A DNA stretch of 63,950 nucleotides, counting the filler, from Thraustochytrium aureum (taxonomy: Eukaryota), in NCBI GenBank assembly GCA_012862495.1. It is 5 parts of 5 records of this genome, joined end to end, with 100 filler letters (N's around TTAATTAATTAA, not from the genome) between each part and the next. Parts side by side here need not be neighbours in the genome. Positions count along the whole stretch, not along the records: positions 57,887 to 62,772 come from BLSG01000419.1; 4 more parts are not named here. One strand, given 5' to 3'. The notes beneath the pieces were generated by a model that made no database searches, had not been told where the DNA came from, and saw only the letters and a program-made list of their open reading frames with translations. Shown piece by piece: positions 24,640 to 63,950 of the stretch (position 1 is its first letter; every line of letters begins with the position of its first letter). The translations under genes were made by a program, and so were the position numbers.

Positions 24640-24739
24640 NNNNNNNNNNNNNNNNNNNNNNNNNNNNNNNNNNNNNNNNNNNNTTAATTAATTAANNNNN
24701 NNNNNNNNNNNNNNNNNNNNNNNNNNNNNNNNNNNNNNN
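24640..24739. other. Artificial scaffold linker N44-TTAATTAATTAA-N44
   Basis: Identical 100-nt structure occurs four times. The 12-mer gives stops in all six frames. Confidence 0.97.
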
Positions 24740-48157: not shown

Positions 48158-48257
48158 NNNNNNNNNNNNNNNNNNNNNNNNNNNNNNNNNNNNNNNNNNN
48201 NTTAATTAATTAANNNNNNNNNNNNNNNNNNNNNNNNNNNNNNNNNNNNNNNNNNNN
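48158..48257. other. Artificial scaffold linker
   Basis: N44-TTAATTAATTAA-N44. Confidence 0.97.
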
Positions 48258-55289: not shown

Positions 55290-57763
55290 TTACGCAAAGA
55301 GATCAAAATCCTCGTCGCTCTGGCTCAAAAAGTCTAGCATCGCGTCGCAAAAGGCGTATCCCATGCCCTCAAAGTGGGAGTAGCTGAGGTGGTTGCCGCG
55401 AAGAGGCCCGATGTCCACGCCACCAAGCGACGCCTCGAGCGTGTAGCTGAGGATGCTGCCACGGAACTGGCGATGTACGCAAACACGACCCGCGGACTCT
55501 TTGTACTTTTGGATCTTAAAGTTGCAGTCCTCGAAGGAAAACACCTGGGATGCTTGGCCGAGTAGCCTCGGAAGGAGCCGGACGCGATGCGCCAGCCGAA
55601 GCGCCTCGGAAAGTCGGTCTTGGCGCTCCTTTGCGCTGGACCTCCGCTTGCTTTTGCGCCGTGCGCTTCCAGGGATGGCTCNNNNNNNNNNNNNNNNNNN
55701 NNNNNNNNNNNNNNNNNNNNNNNNNNNNNNNNNNNNNNNNNNNNNNNNNNNNNNNNNNNNNNNNNNGGCTTGCTCGAAGCGCGCCGCATTTTCGTCTTCG
55801 GCGCTGCATCTCCGCTTTCGATGGACGGCTTTGTGCGCCCAGAGCCCTTGAGCTCGCGTGTGCCCGCCGTCGCCTTTCCGATGCGGAGGCGCCGAATTCC
55901 CTGTCGCTTTTCAGAGCCGCTTTCGCCGGGTTCAGCGCAGCCACTCTTGGCTTCGTACGCACTTGCTCTCGTACAAAGTGCACCAGTTTCGGGCTCGATG
56001 AAACTGTCGTTGTTGTCTGCGGTACCGCAGCCCTGGTCGTCCTCTTCGGGTTGGTCTTCGTCCTCGAGATCTTCGTCGTCGTTTACATCTTCGCCCTCGT
56101 TTCCCGCGGCGCCTTCCTCGTCTTCCTCGTCGTCGTCGGGGTCATCGTCCTCCTCGTCGAGGTCCTCCTCCTCGTCGTCGTCGTCTTCGTCGTTGAGAAC
56201 ATCGTCCAGGTCGCCCACGTCGTCCTGCACGATACCCTCGCACGCTTGCCGCGTCACGCGGGCCGGTATGCCTCGTGCTGGTTCGCTCCAACAACCATCT
56301 GTCGAGTTGGGAAGGTGCTCGGTGCGCTCCTTGGACGAATCTTGCCAGGGAGAATCTGCGGGTTGGGCAACAGGCTCAATCCTGCACGCTGCAGGCCAGC
56401 GCTCATCCGAAGGTTTCCGCTTGCCGGCGACCTTGCCCAGGGAGCCGCGTGCGCTGTTTCGGATCGCTTGGCGGTGCCGGCGCTCCTCGCAACCGTAGAC
56501 GAAAATGTTGTGACGGCGCGAGTGACCGTGAAAGTCGCAAAAGAGGAGCACCTTCCTTTCCTCAGCAAACTGGGCCAACAGCGTCTTGAGATGCCAAATC
56601 GTGGGCAGCGTCTTGCGGTCCGGATCTGTGTACATTCGGTTGAGGTCTACTCCAGCAAGCGAGCAGCGCGAGTTGCCCGCAGCGACGCCATCTGGGTTGA
56701 GCATCGGCACGATCTTGAACACGAAGTTGTCGCGCAAAATTTTGGCGTCCAAGCTCGGCCCCGTCAGAAAATCCAGCACGCCCTGCATCATCCAGCTCGC
56801 GTTGGTCTCGCTCGGATGCACCCGCGCTGTCAGCACCACGCCGCGGCGGCTCGCCATGGGCGGCTGCCCTGCCGGCCCCGATGTGGTGCCGAAAGAGGTC
56901 ACTGTTATCAGGTCGCAGCGGTTCCCGGCCAGAGTGCGGCAGAGGACGCGCCGGCGCATGCGCATCCGGCGCACTGGGTCCGCTTCGAGCTGGCCCAGGA
57001 AGCGCTGCAGGTCAGAGTAGAGGTATGGGTAGCATGGACACAAATAGCACAGATCGCCGGGCGCCACCTCGTCCTCCTCCGTGATCTCCACGGCGAAGCG
57101 AAGCACAAAGCTCTGCGCGTCCGTGGCGTTCGAAGTGTACGTCACGTCACACCCAACGCGCCGCCAGCCCCGCCTGTCGCTGTACATGAGTGGACGACAG
57201 CCGCCGGGGTCCCCAAAAAGCGAGTCTCCTTTGGTAAACTCGAGGATGTTGAACGTGTACCGACGACCTGGCCTCAAGTTGCCCACAGAGAAATAAAACC
57301 ATTGCGCGTGGGGCTTGTCCGCACATGGGTCGCGCTCGAGGAAGAGCTCGTATTCATCCTGGCCAACAAGGACACTGCGCTGCAAATTGCCTCCTTCAAA
57401 GCGCGAGTCGAAATGGAGAACCGAAGAATCGCCAGCCTGGACCAAGGCGGGACTCGGCGGCTCGGAGGCAGGGCTGGCTCGATCGTACACCACATAAATA
57501 TCACTCTGAGCGGGCTCATAAGGGGCTGGCTTCGGCTTCGAGGGGTCGACCTTCAGCAGCGGTTCCAGTGCGGGATCGGTCGGGTAGGTGTGGGTCGGCG
57601 GAGGCCTGGCAAAGCGGTCCTCCGGGATACACCTTGCCGCCTCGGGCGGCCCGCCAGCTGCTGAGGATATCGTGAGCAAAGGGGAGGGGAGAGGGGCACG
57701 GCACTGGTTTGGGCAAGCGTGTTCGCCCTCCGGTGCCTCCTCGAGTCCGCCGCGCGAGCTCAC
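55290..57763 (-). CDS. Cytosolic carboxypeptidase (M14D; CCP/Nna1/AGBL tubulin deglutamylase); 5' end probably truncated by the scaffold end
   Basis: FDSRFEGGNL, QWFYF, YPYLYSDL, ARVHPSETNASW, PMLNPDGV..GNSRCSLAGVDLNR, DFHGHS and SYTLEAS. The frame change coincides with the N gap at 55682-55766. Confidence 0.93.
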
Positions 57764-57786: not shown

Positions 57787-57886
57787 NNNNNNNNNNNNNN
57801 NNNNNNNNNNNNNNNNNNNNNNNNNNNNNNTTAATTAATTAANNNNNNNNNNNNNNNNNNNNNNNNNNNNNNNNNNNNNNNNNNNN
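57787..57886. other. Artificial scaffold linker
   Basis: N44-TTAATTAATTAA-N44. Confidence 0.97.
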
Positions 57887-58525
57887 GGGAGTGGATTGAG
57901 CGGGCGGGCGGGCGGGCGGGCGGGGCAAGGACGATCGGGTCTTGAGGCTGCGGCTGAGAAGCGGCGCGAGACTCTTGATCGCGCGCGCGGCGCTCGGCCA
58001 GCCGCGCTGGGGAGCAGAGCTCGACCCGCGCGCTGCGGCTGCAAGGAGGGCTGAGGCTGCGCCGGAAGAGGCCTCGCAGGGACGCGGCAGTCACCTGAGC
58101 TCGGGGTGATCGGAAGGGAAGGGCAAAGAGCGCCCGGCGACGCCGCGCGAGGGGAGCTCGAGTCGCCAACCGCAGCAGCAACACGGAGAAGCGAGCCGCG
58201 GGCGAACAGATCGGGGCATCAGGCGCCAGTTAGGTCATTGAGTAACGCTCGAAGCGTGTGACGGGGAGCCCAGCCGAGCCCGAGCCCAGCCCGAGCCCAA
58301 GCCCAAGCCCTCGCGGCAGGCGTGCCGCTCAAGCAGGAGGCCCGAGAGCAACCGCCGTTGCCGCTCTGCCCGCACGGGCGCGCGCGCGCGCAGAGAGAGC
58401 CGCCGAGCGGAGGATGCGAGTGGGGACGAAGGAGCTTGCAACGTAATCGCATAGCATACCCCAAAGACAAGCGTCGGGCCGGAACAGGCCCCCCGCGCTA
58501 CACCAGGGACGCGGAACGGTGTGGT

Positions 58526-60097
58526 ATGGACCCCAACCGCAGCGGTTTTCAGCACTGGGCCCTCAACCACGGACGATCAACCCCGGGATCAAACCAGCTT
58601 TCAGAGCAAGTACGCCAGTCGCTCGAGATCCCAGCGCCTGGCCAGATCAACAGCCCGCGCCAGAACGGGCAAACTGCAGCTTCGGCTGAGTATGCTGGAC
58701 AGGGCCACCCTGTTCTATCAAGCTTTCGAAACGACCAAGCCCGCCAACTGCCCATGATGGACTCGCACTCGCGCCACATGCAGCAACAGCACCAGTCGGT
58801 GAACCAGCAGGCGGCCTTTGCTGCCGCTCAACAGCACAGCGCGCAGCAACCCACGGGGCCCTCCATGGCGCAATTCAGCGCCATGGGCCACGCCAACCAA
58901 GGCGGCGCCTTCGGCAGCTCCCAATTCACGGGCTCGCACGGCGCCTCGAGCCAGAACCCCAGCAACATGCACGTGCTCGCCATGAGCGGCGGCTCCCACG
59001 GTATCGACGCGCCTGGCCATGACCAGGCAAACGGCCAGCTCAAGGGCATGTCCTCGCAGCACGCGGCCATGCCGTTTCTCGGCGACGGGTCGATGGCGCA
59101 CCACTTCCAGGCCCACTCGAACCCGTTCGCCATGCCGCACGCCTACATGATGCCGAGCTCTGTTGCCACCTCTGCGGGGGCAGCGGGGGGCCTTCACGGC
59201 AGCATCGGCCACTCCTACCCGGGGTACATGGTCGGGGACGCCGCCTCTGCAGCTGCAGCCGCGGCCGCGGCCTTTGCCTCCAACCCGCACGCCCTGTCGT
59301 ACGGCGCCTTCCACCCAAACATGATGCCTGGCTTNNNNNNNNNNNNNNNNNNNNNNNNNNNNNNNNNNNNNNNNNNNNNNNNNNNNNNNNNNNNNNNNNN
59401 NNNNNNNNNNNNNNNNNNNNNNNNNNNNNNNNNNNNNNNNNNNNNNNNNNNNNNNNNNNNNCCGGTCGGCGGCGCTACGCTCGAGAAGCGCGAGTCCGAG
59501 TCTGCCAACCCCAACCCAGCAAAGCGCAAGCGGCGCCGGGTGCGCTCCAAGTCTAGCTCGTCGCGCGGCGCCCCCGGGTCCGGCCGCGGCCTCACCTCCC
59601 TGCAGATCTTCGACAAGTACGTCAAGCGAGGCGAGAGCGACCAAGGCGTCAAGCTGGTCGACGCCGCGGGGATCCTCTCTCGGGCCTGTTTCGAGGAGTG
59701 GGTTGACTCGCGCAAGATTCGCCCAGGCAACCCAGAGGAAGCCTTTCGCAAGGCGCTCATCAGCTACATCACCGTCGCGGACGGCGCGTCGCGGCCTTTC
59801 CCGCCCGAGATCGAAAAATGCCTGCTAGTTCTGCTCCGTCGGAAGGAGGTATGGCCCTGCTTCCGCGGCCGCTGCCATGAAGGTTCGAGCAAGGAGATCC
59901 TCATCGGCTCGAATGGCATTCGTGCCAGCGGCTACCATGAGCGCCGCGTCGCAGCGGGGACTGAGCCGGCACCGCTCGCGCTGCCAGCCATCCTCTCTGA
60001 CGATTCCGGCTACGAAGTGGGCGATGACCTCATCGACGGGCGTGCCTTTGGCGTCGACCCGGCCGCCGCCGATGAGGACGATGCAAGCGGCCCGTAG
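58526..60097 (+). CDS. Putative transcription factor: Q/H/A/M-rich low-complexity region, basic NLS, unassigned ~120-aa domain
   Basis: MDPNRSGF..., Gln/His/Ala tracts, KRKRRRVR, then LSRACFEEWVDSRK..NPEEAFRKAL..RPFPPEIE..WPCF..IGSNG..GYHE, which is shared with the paralog at 62085-62772. Confidence 0.75.
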   Translation: MDPNRSGFQHWALNHGRSTPGSNQLSEQVRQSLEIPAPGQINSPRQNGQTAASAEYAGQGHPVLSSFRNDQARQLPMMDSHSRHMQQQHQSVNQQAAFAAAQQHSAQQPTGPSMAQFSAMGHANQGGAFGSSQFTGSHGASSQNPSNMHVLAMSGGSHGIDAPGHDQANGQLKGMSSQHAAMPFLGDGSMAHHFQAHSNPFAMPHAYMMPSSVATSAGAAGGLHGSIGHSYPGYMVGDAASAAAAAAAAFASNPHALSYGAFHPNMMPGXXXXXXXXXXXXXXXXXXXXXXXXXXXXXXXXXXXXXXXXXXXPVGGATLEKRESESANPNPAKRKRRRVRSKSSSSRGAPGSGRGLTSLQIFDKYVKRGESDQGVKLVDAAGILSRACFEEWVDSRKIRPGNPEEAFRKALISYITVADGASRPFPPEIEKCLLVLLRRKEVWPCFRGRCHEGSSKEILIGSNGIRASGYHERRVAAGTEPAPLALPAILSDDSGYEVGDDLIDGRAFGVDPAAADEDDASGP

Positions 60098-60773
60098 CTG
60101 CTCGCGACTTTGCCGAGACAACGTGAGCGAGCGAGCGAGCGGCTTTTGCGGGCGCATTTCAAAGCCCACTCTGCGGCATTCACTAACGACCGCGACACCG
60201 GACACTGACAACAAATCAACGCAACATCGCTCATTGGTTGACCTCGTAGTATTACCGACCGTCTTCGAGCTCGAGCGCGGTAGGCGCTACGCAGGTATTG
60301 GACGGGTGAATGGATGGATGGATGGATGGTCGGGGTCGCGGTGCTGGCGCCCTTGCGCTGCAACGTGGGTCGGGAGACGGGCAAACCGTTTCAAGGATTT
60401 TGAACTTGTTCGCCCTTGCTCACCCTGATGAGCCGCTGCCTGCAGAGAGGCGCCATGGCAAGCGGGCGGGAGGGGAGTGAGGTCGGCAGGCGCACTGGGC
60501 TTCCGGTGGCCTTTGGAGAGGTCCAGTACCAAGTACATTTTCGTTTCATTTTCGTTTCATTTTTCCTTCCTCGCCTCCTTACATCCGTCCAGCCCACAGC
60601 CAGAGTCCAGGGCCAGGGAGCTAGCTGCAGAACTCGAGAGCAGGTCAGCGGGAAGCCGCGGCATCGCACCCAGTCTGCACCTGCCAGAGTGCCCCGCGCG
60701 GCGAAGGAGGCGCCGCTGGCCGGCGCGCGAAAAGGCGATGCGAAGCACCTGCTACATCGTGGCCTCGCACTCG

Positions 60774-61523
60774 CTACTCGGCTTTGAGCTTGCCAAAGTG
60801 CGCCGTCGTTGCACTGCGGTAAAACAGGATCTGCCAAAAGATGACCACGTTCAGGGCCATCGGCAACAGCTCTCCAACGACCGCAAACACGTCGTCCACC
60901 TCTTGGATGACTGTCAGCAAGCGAACCGCTGCGCCAGCCACCGCCGCACCGAGCGTCACGCCCGAGAGCACGCCGGTGTGCCCGTTCGAAAAGTTGACTG
61001 CGATTTGAGGCAGCCTCGACGCGCAGGCGCCCACCGTGCTGTAGACGACAAGCCAATGGCGCGCCTCGGCCGGCACACTGCACATGGCTGCGATCGCCCC
61101 CGCGAGCGCCAAGGCAGACACAACGCGAAACGCCCACCCCTTACGGCCAAACCTCCAAATCAACACAGAGATCAGGATGTTTTGCGCCAGCAGGACGTAC
61201 TTCTCCCCGTACGTGCTGAACGGGCTCCCCAAGAAGTAGTGGTACACCAGCATCGCGGCGTACATGGTCGTTTCCAGGTACACCGAGGAGGTGGACAGCC
61301 CGTCCACGCTGCCGGACCGCGCGATGTTGACAATCAGCGGCACCTTGAGCACGCTGGAGAAGGCCACAATCGCATACCCAGCCACCTTGCTCAGCGTCTG
61401 CTTCAAGCACTCGACGTGCAGCAGGTTCAGCTCCAGCACCAGCACGTCGAAGCATTCGTCCGTGATCAGCAGCGGGCTCACGAGCGGCCGCGTCAGGTTT
61501 AGCGCGCCCCGGACGGCGTCCAT
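60774..61523 (-). CDS. MPDU1: Mannose-P-dolichol utilization defect 1 (Lec35) PQ-loop protein
   Basis: ECF..L..L.CLKQTLSKVAGYAIVAFSSVLKVP, SVDGLS, PFSTYGE, SRLPQIAVNFSNGHTGVLS, RLLTVIQEVDD and LNVVIFWQILFY. Confidence 0.92.
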   Translation of the reverse strand: MDAVRGALNLTRPLVSPLLITDECFDVLVLELNLLHVECLKQTLSKVAGYAIVAFSSVLKVPLIVNIARSGSVDGLSTSSVYLETTMYAAMLVYHYFLGSPFSTYGEKYVLLAQNILISVLIWRFGRKGWAFRVVSALALAGAIAAMCSVPAEARHWLVVYSTVGACASRLPQIAVNFSNGHTGVLSGVTLGAAVAGAAVRLLTVIQEVDDVFAVVGELLPMALNVVIFWQILFYRSATTAHFGKLKAE

Positions 61524-62084
61524 CCTCGCTTGCGCCCGCTGCCCTGCCCACTTCAAAGCCTTCCTTCGCCTCTGTCGCCGCTGCCGCCGCCGCAGTGTTC
61601 GCTCCCAGTCCACGGCGCACGCGCGACGTTGGCCGAATGGATGGACACGTGGATGGATGGACGGATGGTAACAGACGGGGAAGGCACGGCAGTGTGTCTT
61701 GCGGCCTCGCGGGGGCAGGCGCGGCAGGCAGGCTGGCTGGCGCTCGAGCGATGGTGGCGCGCTTGCGGCTCGGCGCGGGCTTGGCCGTGGGCTGGACCGC
61801 TTTGTGGCGCGAGGGGTGGATGCATCGTATGCGCGGCCCGCGGCTCGAACAAGGTGGCCGCCCGCCGCGAGCGTCGACGGCGGGAGGCAGGGTGCGGGCG
61901 CGGGCAGAGAAGAGCAGAGCAGAGCATATAGCGTGCGTAGAGGCTGTTGCTTGGAAGGAAAGCGATGAAGAACGGTTGGTGAGCTGCTACTTGGAGACGC
62001 ACGGGGTGGCTCCGCCTTGGCAAAAGAAAAAGTATTCTCCCTGTAGAGAGCTGCAGAGCAAGTCAGGGGGGGGCAGGCGCTGGG

Positions 62085-62772
62085 CTAGGCGGGGCTCGGG
62101 TGAGCGCTGCCCTCGTCCGCCGGCGGTTTGGGTGAGTCGGACGCAGCCGCGGCCTCCGGCAACTCGGTCTCCTCGTTGGGCTCTCCCTCCTTTGAGCCGG
62201 CCAAGAGAAGCTGCTCGGCATCGTCTCGCTTGGACAAGCTGCGGCGGGCGCGCTTGTGGCGCACACGCTTGCGGCCCACCCTCTGGTCCTCGGGAAGCGC
62301 CTCGTCCAGCTTTTGTTGCTCGTGGTAACCGCGGCAACGCACGCCGTTCGACCCGATCAGCACCGGCTTGCCATCCGCGTAAAACTTGCCAGCAAAGCAC
62401 GGCCAGATCTCGCGCCGTCGCAAGTGCTTGAGAAGGTTGGCCTCCACCTCGGGCGCGAACGGTCGCGAAGCGCCGTCCGCGACGGTAATGTATGAAACCA
62501 CGGCCTTGCGAAACGCCTCCTCGGGATTGCGCAGCACATTCTTGCGCGACTTCACCCAGGCGTCAAAGCATGCGCGCGAGAGGACGCGCGAGGCGTCGTA
62601 CGTTTTTCTGCCTGCAGAGTCAACCGTGACTTTGACAAAGGACTCGAACACCTCAAGCGACGTCGCCCCGCGCTGCAACCTGCGCTTGTAGGTCTGTGCT
62701 ACCGGCTGTTGTACTTGGGCGGCAGGAGCGCCCGGCACGGGCAGTCCGCCACCTGCTGCTCCAGGGTACATG
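62085..62772 (-). CDS. Paralog of the 58526-60097 putative transcription factor; 5' end truncated
   Basis: Same domain (LSRACFDAWVKSRK..NPEEAFRKAV..RPFAPEVE..WPCF..IGSNG..GYHE) followed by basic RKRVRHKRARR. Confidence 0.78.
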
Positions 62773-62872
62773 NNNNNNNNNNNNNNNNNNNNNNNNNNNN
62801 NNNNNNNNNNNNNNNNTTAATTAATTAANNNNNNNNNNNNNNNNNNNNNNNNNNNNNNNNNNNNNNNNNNNN
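62773..62872. other. Artificial scaffold linker
   Basis: N44-TTAATTAATTAA-N44. Confidence 0.97.
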
Positions 62873-63950
62873 TTCCGTCATGAGAGTCTCGAAAGCAAAG
62901 TCGCCTGGGCCGAGACTGCTGGCCCCATCTGGATAGTTGTCTGTTTCACCCGTGTGCCTGTACCACAATTGCCCAGTCGGTATCTCAGTGGCGTACCCGA
63001 ACGAAAGAGTGTAGGTCTGACCTTTCTCGAGGAATCTGGCAAGATTCAGATGGAAAGGGATGCCGAACGACCGGGTGATAATGTGAGCGAAGGTATCGGA
63101 ACACACCGAATTCGCCGCCCAGCTTCCCAAAGAAGGCAACGACAGGCCCTCGCCAGGATGCAAGCTGAAAAGGATGGTGTTCGAGCCCGATCTTGTTCCG
63201 CAACTCAGTGCCAGCCTTACGCCCGTGAGTCGCCCGCTCTTTGTCGGTTTGAAGGACTGCCAGTGAGTTGGAAAAGCGCCGCCTTGGTTTCCATCGGAGC
63301 CTCCGGTCTGTCTTACGTCAACAGTTGTCGGACTCTCCACAAGGAGCCCCGTCGAGCATTTACAGTTGCTGGTGCTAGCATCGAAAACCAGCTGCAGCTC
63401 GGGCAGCGCTGCGCAGGTGCAGGACGATTGGTCTGCGCCAGCCGAACGTCCTGCGAAGCTGCCGCACTGCTTGCAAATGCCAGTGTCACTCAAATGCTCG
63501 TTCTCACTGCAGGTCACGCAAGTGGTCTCTGACATGGCCGTTACGAAAGCAAATTTGTCTGTGCCTCCAAGACTGCTGACACCGGCGGAGTGGCCAGCAA
63601 AGTTATAACCATACGACAGTTCGTCGTCCGAGTTGAGGCCAAACGCGATCGTGTAGTCCTCCCCCGCGAAAAGCATAAGCTTCGGCCCCTCTTGCACGAG
63701 GATTCCATCAGAAACTAGAAAGGTTCGCCAGTCAAAAGATTGACACTGATCGTCGCTAGTAGTCGAAGAGGTCCACAGCACCGGCCCCGCGGTCCCTATG
63801 CCAGCATGTAACGATAGAGTCAACTCAGTTCCCGCTGGGCTGCAACCGAGCATGAGCCTCACGTCGATGAGTTGCCCGTTAAACGTGGGTGAGAAGCTCT
63901 GCCATTTCGCGCCATTGGAAGTCCCCTGATATCGGTTTAGAGCGTACGGA
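62873..63950 (-). CDS. Internal fragment of a large extracellular protein: repeated beta-sandwich-like modules separated by Cys-rich linkers
   Basis: Frame open across the whole fragment. Two copies of WQSF.PT..G.L..VRL.L.C...SLH.G.G...G..YT..FG.....G.SSLG...FAF.T, with a CVTC..C..C..C.C..C.C linker between them. Confidence 0.75.

Follow-up and report, generated by a model that had tools for sequence, protein, structure and literature searches.

Gene content of the locus

The locus lies on a 4.9 kb contig (57887–62772) of Thraustochytrium aureum, which carries two genes, here called gene A and gene B, with an MPDU1-like gene between them. This contig is part of the window, the whole stretch of 63,950 nucleotides that was analysed, in which several unlinked contigs are chained by linkers of the form N44-TTAATTAATTAA-N44. 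The N-run table and the sequence placed such artificial linkers on both sides of the locus, at 57787–57886 and, without strand, at 62773–62872. According to the ORF list, gene A is on the plus strand (58526–60097, counted from its first in-frame ATG through the stop codon), while the MPDU1-like gene (60774–61613) and gene B (62085–62772) are both on the minus strand. Genes A and B therefore form a convergent pair that flanks the central gene, as the initial annotation had described.

The central ORF serves as context and is outside the domain family. It matched the PQ-loop family PF04193 (E = 2.1e-15; hmmscan, Pfam-A) and showed 60% identity to a Hondaea fermentalgiana protein annotated as 'Mannose-P-dolichol utilization defect 1 protein'. 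Homologs are 249–262 aa long and span 86–90% of the ORF in the window, and the real start of this gene is probably inside 60774–61613.

The coding sequence of gene A is interrupted by an assembly gap of 127 N (59335–59461, plus strand). In record 5 of the public run X1 (1942 letters), which is collinear with 58510–59334 and 59462–60533 and has no further joint, 49 letters take the place of this gap. As the two lengths, 49 and 127, differ by a multiple of 3, the frame of gene A is kept across the gap, and with a gap of 49 nt the product would comprise ~497 aa. The region upstream of the gap (58526–59334, plus strand) encodes 269 low-complexity residues, with 16.4% A, 13% S, 11.5% G, 10.4% Q, 7.8% H and 6.3% M, and gave no Pfam match at E ≤ 5. 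This composition bears out the Q/H/A/M-rich region previously noted in the first gene. Directly upstream of the domain, the translated sequence contains a patch of 10 residues of which 8 are K or R (59522–59551, plus strand). The domain itself, copy A, was located at 59585–59947 (plus strand) by BLASTP against copy B, and the family HMM covers residues 43–162 of the post-gap product.

The window holds the 3′ part of gene B only, with the linker following directly after 62772. The reading frame is open up to this contig end, and contigs from four public runs (X1, X3, X4 and X2) reach 62772 and extend beyond it. Base 62772 corresponds to record positions 743, 635, 1131 and 1112 in the contigs of the four runs, which, on our reading of the minus-strand record table, add 634 to 1130 letters. 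As these contigs continue past 62772, the ATG at 62771 is probably not the real start of gene B, the real 5′ part of which is beyond the contig end and outside the window. Domain copy B (62310–62681, minus strand) was delimited with the family HMM, which covers residues 31–154, and it was used as the query for the family search and for the AlphaFold2 model. In this gene, a translated patch in which K or R makes up 8 of 12 residues is found downstream of the domain (62241–62276, minus strand). Each domain copy is thus adjoined by a basic patch, in line with the initial annotation, and by their sequence these patches look like nuclear localisation signals.

None of the runs listed with matching contigs is recorded as RNA. 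In three runs of one study that were guessed to be RNA, collinear contigs were obtained over gene A, the MPDU1-like gene and gene B each. Their cover was scant or absent at 61473–61961, a stretch that is covered by the DNA-like run X2. Contigs from guessed-RNA runs are not proof that the genes in the window are transcribed. For the next contig of the window (62873–63950), the runs yielded no more than a 33-base piece from X1 and two ~35-base pieces from X2, which fits with contigs that are not neighbours and proves nothing.

The shared domain and its family

BLASTP aligned 59585–59947 with 62313–62672 at 71 identities over 121 positions (59%), with 74% positives and one gap (E = 2e-49). Outside the domain, no other similar segment was found between the products of genes A and B (next E = 1.3), substantiating the earlier description of a shared compact domain, roughly 60% identical, between unrelated flanks. 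At the DNA level, the alignment of A and B extended over 151 nt only (74%), and a tblastn search of the whole window with domain B revealed no third copy beyond A and B.

To place the domain, an exhaustive search of 1.84 billion representative proteins with domain B was performed, and it returned 532 matches at E ≤ 1e-3, 304 at E ≤ 1e-10 and 14 at E ≤ 1e-30. These counts are upper bounds, because two of the top 150 proteins, P0002 and P0012, are low-complexity repeat proteins without a match to the domain HMM. A word-indexed homolog search with the full gene B gave no match, and the family emerged from the exhaustive search. A domain HMM matched 161 of 163 sequences, namely 159 of 161 database proteins and both copies in the window. 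In total 169 domains were found, with eight proteins carrying two tandem copies; P0001 is a tandem-domain member. Both copies in the window match the HMM, which was derived from alignment A1, over 120–124 residues, and both carry W45, F60-R61, P77-F78, E83, R91, W96-P-C-F and G-Y-H-E. Across the family, the invariant or nearly invariant positions are C41, W45, R49, F60, R61, P77, F78, E83, L87, R91, W96, C98, F99, G113, G116, G121 and E124.

All members that carry a species name are from labyrinthulomycetes. Their annotations read hypothetical or uncharacterised, except for a single fused gene model that is named for its GTPase part. Several members derive from MMETSP transcriptome assemblies, which speaks for transcription of the family; the entry TAXON_ID=87120 in an MMETSP header belongs, in today's taxonomy, to a basidiomycete and was disregarded.

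As the initial annotation had stated, the domain could be assigned to no named family. With hmmscan against Pfam-A, neither copy A nor copy B matched a family at E ≤ 1, four relatives gave no match at E ≤ 5, and 79 relatives had no match over the domain itself at E ≤ 1e-3. Likewise, no NCBIfam match at E ≤ 1 was obtained for five proteins, no PDB sequence matched the domain, and a search of the ESM Atlas with domain B returned no usable match. A TIR-like assignment of P0103 in the ESM Atlas was set aside as noise, its rows (0.83–0.86) being below the trust level of the tool and its structure rows reaching TM ≤ 0.32. Literature searches, which included the accession numbers of three members, gave listings without a report on the domain; as a nameless domain is hard to search for, a printed description may exist. 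PMC11267843 proved to be an unrelated reference. On the sequence evidence, we regard the domain as defining a real, large, lineage-restricted and previously unnamed family, so far known from labyrinthulomycetes only, and the uncharacterised family postulated from the locus itself has in this sense been recovered.

It had further been suggested that this family was expanded by local duplication. This is only partly right. A and B are paralogs, and a clade of A and B was not rejected in a tree test (p-AU 0.17). However, the 59% identity between A and B is on a par with that of the two copies to proteins elsewhere (59–62% for P0005 and 54–58% for P0007), and A groups with P0009 and P0010, not with B, in the best tree. 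From these comparisons the duplication is judged to be old, not recent. For the arrangement as a whole, scanning metagenomes with the MPDU1 protein gave no match, and the MPDU1-homolog alignment A2 as query gave two loci. At the related MPDU1 locus L001 (53% identity, GC 42%) no family domain was present within 6 kb, although a single distant relative cannot settle the age of the A/MPDU1/B arrangement.

Predicted fold, charge and protein architecture

With 71 sequences, AlphaFold2 modelled domain B with a pLDDT of 95.4 and a pTM of 0.87 (pLDDT 94.2–95.4 over five models); the single-sequence model was poor (pLDDT 51.2) and was left out. The model is ordered as a helix (11–17), a hairpin (20–23/29–32), three helices (34–48, 56–69 and 80–90) and an ordered C-terminal segment, which has little regular secondary structure, yet a pLDDT of 97–98. 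Foldseek returned no match at E ≤ 1e-3 in PDB or BFVD. The structure search gave many weak rows that we, and not the tool, labelled as winged-helix, with Z ≤ 3.5 throughout. Together, the helix/hairpin/helix/helix order and these weak rows make a helix-turn-helix-like core possible but unproven. The model describes a fold that is predicted very confidently and is without a solved counterpart.

A link to IRF domains, which the initial annotation had drawn from a motif resemblance, found no backing. No IRF, ETS or HSF Pfam model matched the copies at E ≤ 1 or the 79 relatives at E ≤ 1e-3, which includes the IRF profile PF00605 (hmmscan), and the proposed AlphaFold/Foldseek comparison produced no significant match, with no IRF chain among the 50 structure matches listed. 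Compared with winged-helix and helix-turn-helix domains that have an N-terminal helix and a hairpin (ETS, HSF, IRF and the globular domain of linker histones), for which neither Pfam matches nor Z values above 3.5 were obtained, the model shows no beta wing past the third helix. Instead, a fourth helix follows, and then an irregular segment that bears W-P-C-F and G-x-x-G-x-x-x-x-G-Y-H-E. The five-tryptophan repeat is typical of IRF, whereas W45 and W96 are the only conserved tryptophans in the family alignment. Membership of the IRF family is not supported. A likeness to residues ~392–529 of the primase-polymerase of African swine fever virus (AsfvPrimPol) was dismissed as a chance arrangement in view of 8–10% identity, a Z far under the level that the tool takes as meaningful and no sequence match.

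The domain is basic: its net charge is +6.8 on average (from −1 to +18, n = 156), and K or R occupies positions 39, 49, 61, 62, 91 and 118 in at least 75% of the members. The acidic positions D32, E58, D72, E83 and E124 are conserved to an equal degree. Of 161 proteins, 91 have a K/R cluster at most 45 aa from the domain, and among these 161 the domain is placed N-terminally in 89, C-terminally in 37 and in the middle in 24. No Pfam family was detected at E ≤ 1e-3 in 76 of the 79 members of at least 300 aa, and the flanks of the inspected members are mostly of low complexity. Additional domains were observed in P0033 and its near-identical MMETSP transcript P0152, where DWNN (E = 1.3e-21) and a U-box (E = 5.1e-07) precede the domain N-terminally, an architecture known from RBBP6/Mpe1-type mRNA 3′-end processing factors. 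Furthermore, P0054 has an SR-25 match below threshold (20.1 bits, cut-off 40), and P0038, annotated as 'Guanine nucleotide-binding protein-like 1', is fused to an MMR_HSR1 GTPase. P0103, P0140, P0077, P0117 and P0085 have in common a second unnamed region at the C-terminal side, which might be a PAS-like sensor. Family members are intronless, host-like genes of high GC3 (0.77–0.80) that adjoin housekeeping genes. By sequence, the proteins look like nuclear regulators, combining a basic domain with K/R patches and stretches of low complexity.

Proposed function and comparison with known systems

We tentatively propose, rating the chance as just short of even, that A and B are paralogs of old origin, both with a single ~120-residue basic alpha/beta domain of a large labyrinthulomycete family, and that this domain has the predicted role of binding nucleic acid in nuclear regulators, DNA being the likeliest target. 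The observed basis consists of the paralogy, the family size, the lack of a named sequence family, the very confidently predicted fold that has no solved counterpart, the basic charge and the protein architectures. DNA would be contacted by a helix-turn-helix-like pair formed by the predicted helices 39–48 and 56–69, of which helix 56–69 bears the near-invariant F60, R61 and R/K62. The K/R patches beside the domain may direct nuclear entry, the regions of low complexity (rich in A/S/G/Q/H/M in gene A, with acidic tails in both genes) could act as effectors, and proteins with two tandem copies may read two adjacent sites. A more specific version, in which this undescribed fold provides sequence-specific DNA binding to the main labyrinthulomycete-specific transcription factor family, with hundreds of single or tandem members and a subset with a second unnamed C-terminal domain as a possible sensor, is held to be somewhat less likely.

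Several findings count against DNA binding and bear on other readings. The domain has no significant similarity to any DNA-binding family, and as the acidic positions 32, 58, 72, 83 and 124 are conserved like the basic ones, the conserved arginines may sit buried in salt bridges, not free for DNA. A presumed recognition helix that is so highly conserved is, moreover, unusual for transcription factor families with diversified specificity. The same observations would be met by a module that is purely structural or mediates protein-protein interaction, for instance one docking to a conserved nuclear partner with its Arg and Glu residues in internal salt bridges: acidic residues are about as numerous as basic ones among the conserved positions, and a near-invariant helix is expected of a shared partner, not of varied DNA motifs. 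We nevertheless consider this reading unlikely, given that a mean charge of +6.8 over ~120 residues is high for a plain docking module, and that adjoining K/R patches and tandem duplication are more typical of nucleic-acid binders. Basic charge fits RNA just as it fits DNA, and the existing fusions (DWNN with U-box, GTPase and the sub-threshold SR-25) lean towards RNA processing, so that the domain could instead serve nuclear proteins as an adaptor module that binds RNA or takes part in its processing. That possibility we hold to be as unlikely as docking, as such domains occur in 3 of 79 long members only, the GTPase fusion of P0038 is a draft-genome gene model that could have merged neighbouring genes, and the structure searches found no similarity to RNA-binding folds.

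Quite improbable, in our judgement, is a small metal-binding and possibly catalytic domain that uses C41, H67, C98 and H123 together with E83 and E124. Of the 164 domain instances, 104 have C-H-C-H at positions 41/67/98/123, conservation is 90% or more for C41 and C98 and 99% for E83 and E124, and an irregular but confidently modelled C-terminal segment is often seen where metal stabilises it. However, one or more of the four residues are missing from 60 of the 164 instances, both copies in the window read C-Y-C-H with Y at position 67, and among the substitutes are W, A, Q, R, K and I, none of which can bind zinc. By our calculation from the counts, joint loss at 67 and 123 is near chance (3 observed, ~3.7 expected). 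Hardly credible is an origin from a mobile element or virus, whose spread would account for the family size. The family is indeed large and diverse, and the top, though insignificant, fold rows fall in the viral primase-polymerase region. Against this, transposase, integrase, reverse transcriptase and capsid Pfam domains occur in none of the 79 long members, the viral database BFVD gave no match at E ≤ 1e-3, and the members are intronless host-like genes beside housekeeping genes.

Labyrinthulomycetes are major marine decomposers and include the DHA producers Aurantiochytrium and Schizochytrium as well as the clam parasite Mucochytrium quahogii. To our knowledge, very little is known about their gene regulation, and a family of several hundred proteins that share one compact domain, which folds confidently in prediction and has no database name, offers a concrete handle on it. 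If the domain binds DNA, it would represent a new DNA-binding fold and the group's own transcription factor family, to be mapped or engineered, with lipid production as one possible aim. Otherwise, it would still be a well-defined new domain, possibly with a new fold, that makes its structure worthwhile. A close parallel is ApiAP2 of apicomplexans, a lineage-specific family of protist transcription factors that was found via its own DNA-binding domain. ApiAP2 is recognisable as AP2 by sequence, whereas the labyrinthulomycete domain is without a recognisable relative and its DNA binding is predicted only. Like ApiAP2, however, the family described here is a large lineage-restricted expansion in which each protein has one or two small basic domains, at variable positions, in an otherwise low-complexity sequence.

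The A and B locus and its surroundings

Genes A and B, each of which encodes one copy of an unnamed domain of ~120 residues, reside together with an MPDU1-like PQ-loop gene on one 4.9-kb contig (57887–62772). According to the ORF list and the sequence, gene A runs on the plus strand from the first in-frame ATG at 58526 to the stop at 60097, while the listed ORF of gene B occupies 62085–62771 on the minus strand. The PQ-loop gene is located at 60774–61613 on the minus strand (PF04193, E 2.1e-15). These coordinates and strands bear out the convergent arrangement of A and B around MPDU1 that was described in the initial annotation. The PQ-loop product was 60% identical to the 'Mannose-P-dolichol utilization defect 1 protein' of Hondaea fermentalgiana and shared 56–65% identity with seven further proteins, which are unnamed or from MMETSP; identity to fungal homologs was at most 37%. 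These values assign the contig to a thraustochytrid-like labyrinthulomycete. The GC content at the locus (~0.63) and the GC3 (0.77–0.80) fit a compact, GC-rich protist genome.

The N-run table and the sequence revealed the 12-mer TTAATTAATTAA with a 44-base N-run on each side at four sites (24640–24739, 48158–48257, 57787–57886 and 62773–62872). This N44-TTAATTAATTAA-N44 arrangement is the signature of an artificial six-frame-stop linker joining contigs. The window is therefore a chain of unlinked contigs, and neighbors across linkers are not genomic neighbors. The contig preceding that of A and B carries a cytosolic carboxypeptidase-like gene (55334–57763, minus strand; Peptidase_M14, E 6.4e-11; cytosolic carboxypeptidase N-terminal domain, E 3.9e-08), whose product contains a lengthy acidic insert rich in D/E. 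For the following contig (62873–63950), the ORF list shows a frame of 359 aa or more (62873–63949, minus strand) that is truncated at both ends. Its product is cysteine-rich and internally repetitive, with '...W Q S F x P T x x G x L ... V R L ...' occurring twice, and gave no Pfam match at E≤0.01. From the runs covering the A/B contig, only three pieces of ~33–37 bases aligned to this following contig.

The gene models were checked by aligning contigs from public sequencing runs to the A/B contig. One 1942-letter contig of run X1 covered gene A collinearly (58510–60533), and the 127-N gap in gene A corresponded to 49 letters, with the reading frame kept. Besides this gap, the run contigs showed no joint within A or B, and both genes thus appear to be without introns. 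Records of four runs reached and overran the contig end at 62772, so the window lacks the 5′ end of gene B, in which the ATG at 62771 is probably an internal codon. The window's last base lies at positions 743, 635, 1131 and 1112 of these records, which we read as another 634–1130 letters on the upstream side of gene B. For three of these runs, the assignment to RNA is a guess, and they were not counted as proof of expression. Upstream of gene A (58227–58400), the run contigs occurred in two variant forms of 168 versus 174 letters, with small indels at ~58282–58306 over a GC-rich repeat with GAGCCC-like units. Such a pattern suggests that alleles differ in length 5′ of gene A.

The shared domain and its family

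BLASTP aligned the A and B products over the domain with 71/121 identities (59%, E 2e-49) and found no other similar segment, in agreement with the proposal of a common domain, ~60% identical, between unrelated flanks. At the DNA level, the alignable stretch was only 151 nt (74%), indicating that the duplication is old, and tblastn with domain B found no third copy in the window. A K/R patch adjoins each domain as reported, upstream of domain A (59522–59551, plus strand) and downstream of domain B (62241–62276, minus strand). Likewise, the claimed Q/H/A/M-rich region of gene A was recovered as an N-terminal stretch rich in A/S/G/Q/H/M by composition.

The idea of local duplication was upheld only in part: the paralogs lie 2 kb apart, but the best tree joins A to the database proteins P0010 and P0009 rather than to B. 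This grouping with sharers of A's architecture is weak (91/68) and falls within a nine-member subclade that includes both A and B (support 95/98). A clade of A plus B was not rejected (p-AU 0.17). At one distant MPDU1 locus, no copy of the family domain was present nearby.

An exhaustive phmmer search of 1.84 billion representative proteins with domain B yielded 532 proteins at E≤1e-3, of which 304 reached ≤1e-10 and 14 reached ≤1e-30; two of 150 listed matches were low-complexity false positives. The domain HMM matched 161 of 163 collected sequences, with 169 domains in all and a tandem pair in eight proteins. Among the 161 proteins, the domain was N-terminal in 89, C-terminal in 37 and internal in 24, and a K/R patch adjoined it in 91. 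Names were looked up for 30 members, five of which belong to species-named clusters, all Labyrinthulomycetes: Hondaea fermentalgiana (2), Mucochytrium quahogii (2) and Aplanochytrium minuta (1). The other members were either of environmental origin or transcripts from MMETSP. Among named members the annotation is 'hypothetical', and the one UniRef name found was 'Uncharacterized protein, Tax=Sar'.

The Pfam scan of the family covered the 79 members of at least 300 aa, leaving out 69 shorter ones, and 76 of the 79 matched no family at E≤1e-3. P0033 carries DWNN plus U-box, P0038 an MMR_HSR1 GTPase, and P0054 an SR-25 match under its cut-off. P0033/P0152 and P0038 share the same C-terminal segment, domain included, attached to different partners: one thraustochytrid transcript joins it to DWNN plus U-box, and a Hondaea gene model named GNL1 joins it to a GNL1-type GTPase. 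At least one of these may be a merged gene model. In addition, P0103, P0140, P0077, P0117 and P0085 possess a second conserved region in their C-terminal 110–195 residues (phmmer E 8e-35 to 4e-4 against P0103 residues 151–344), likewise without a Pfam match, which may be a sensor or dimerization domain. The C-termini of P0003, P0004 and P0157 resemble it as judged by eye.

Predicted fold and candidate functions

Without an alignment, AlphaFold2 gave a poor model (pLDDT 51.2); with 71 sequences, pLDDT rose to 95.4 and pTM to 0.87, the five models being concordant (94.2–95.4). The model comprises helix 11–17, a hairpin (20–23/29–32) and helices 34–48, 56–69 and 80–90; the C-terminal segment that follows is ordered and closes with a short helix at G-Y-H-E. 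Positions C41, W45, R49, F60, R61, P77, F78, E83, L87, R91, W96, C98, F99, G113, G116, G121 and E124 are invariant or nearly so. At least 75% of 156 domains have K or R at positions 39, 49, 61, 62, 91 and 118, and D or E at 32, 58, 72, 83 and 124; the mean net charge is +6.8. Membership in the IRF family, to whose domains a resemblance had been suggested, was not supported by the tests run: no IRF profile matched, and just two conserved tryptophans were found. The structure search had no IRF chain among the matches listed.

A basic compact domain, K/R patches, surroundings that are low-complexity, Q-rich or acidic in the members inspected and in both window genes, and a large, apparently lineage-restricted family form the pattern of nuclear nucleic-acid-binding regulators. 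Tentatively, we therefore favor lineage-specific regulators of this kind, most likely DNA-binding transcription factors. The domain is present once or twice per protein, and its helices 39–48 and 56–69 would serve as a candidate helix-turn-helix for DNA binding. An RNA-processing adaptor, to which the DWNN/U-box and GTPase fusions would point, seems unlikely, and we give equally little credit to a protein-docking module in which the conserved charges form internal salt bridges. A metal-binding or catalytic role is less probable still. The pattern C-H-C-H at positions 41/67/98/123 is present in 104 of 164 instances, and some family members may have a structural zinc site; as a general feature it is not supported by the sequences, where single-position losses are frequent and seemingly independent, and domains A and B both read C-Y-C-H. 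An origin from mobile elements is very improbable.

Relation to known domains

The Pfam search gave no match at E≤1 for the A and B products, consistent with the earlier failure to assign the domain to a named family. Foldseek detected no match among 350,542 PDB chains (best E 0.83) or in BFVD (best E 0.023), and neither did PDB sequence-profile searches (best E 0.76–0.92). Neither Pfam nor NCBIfam names the family, no relative with a solved structure was detected, and the literature searches yielded no account of it; this is a new domain family and possibly a new fold. What it provides, rather than a proven mechanism, is a solid and testable entry point to how genes are regulated in labyrinthulomycetes, a group of ecologically and industrially important, poorly studied protists.
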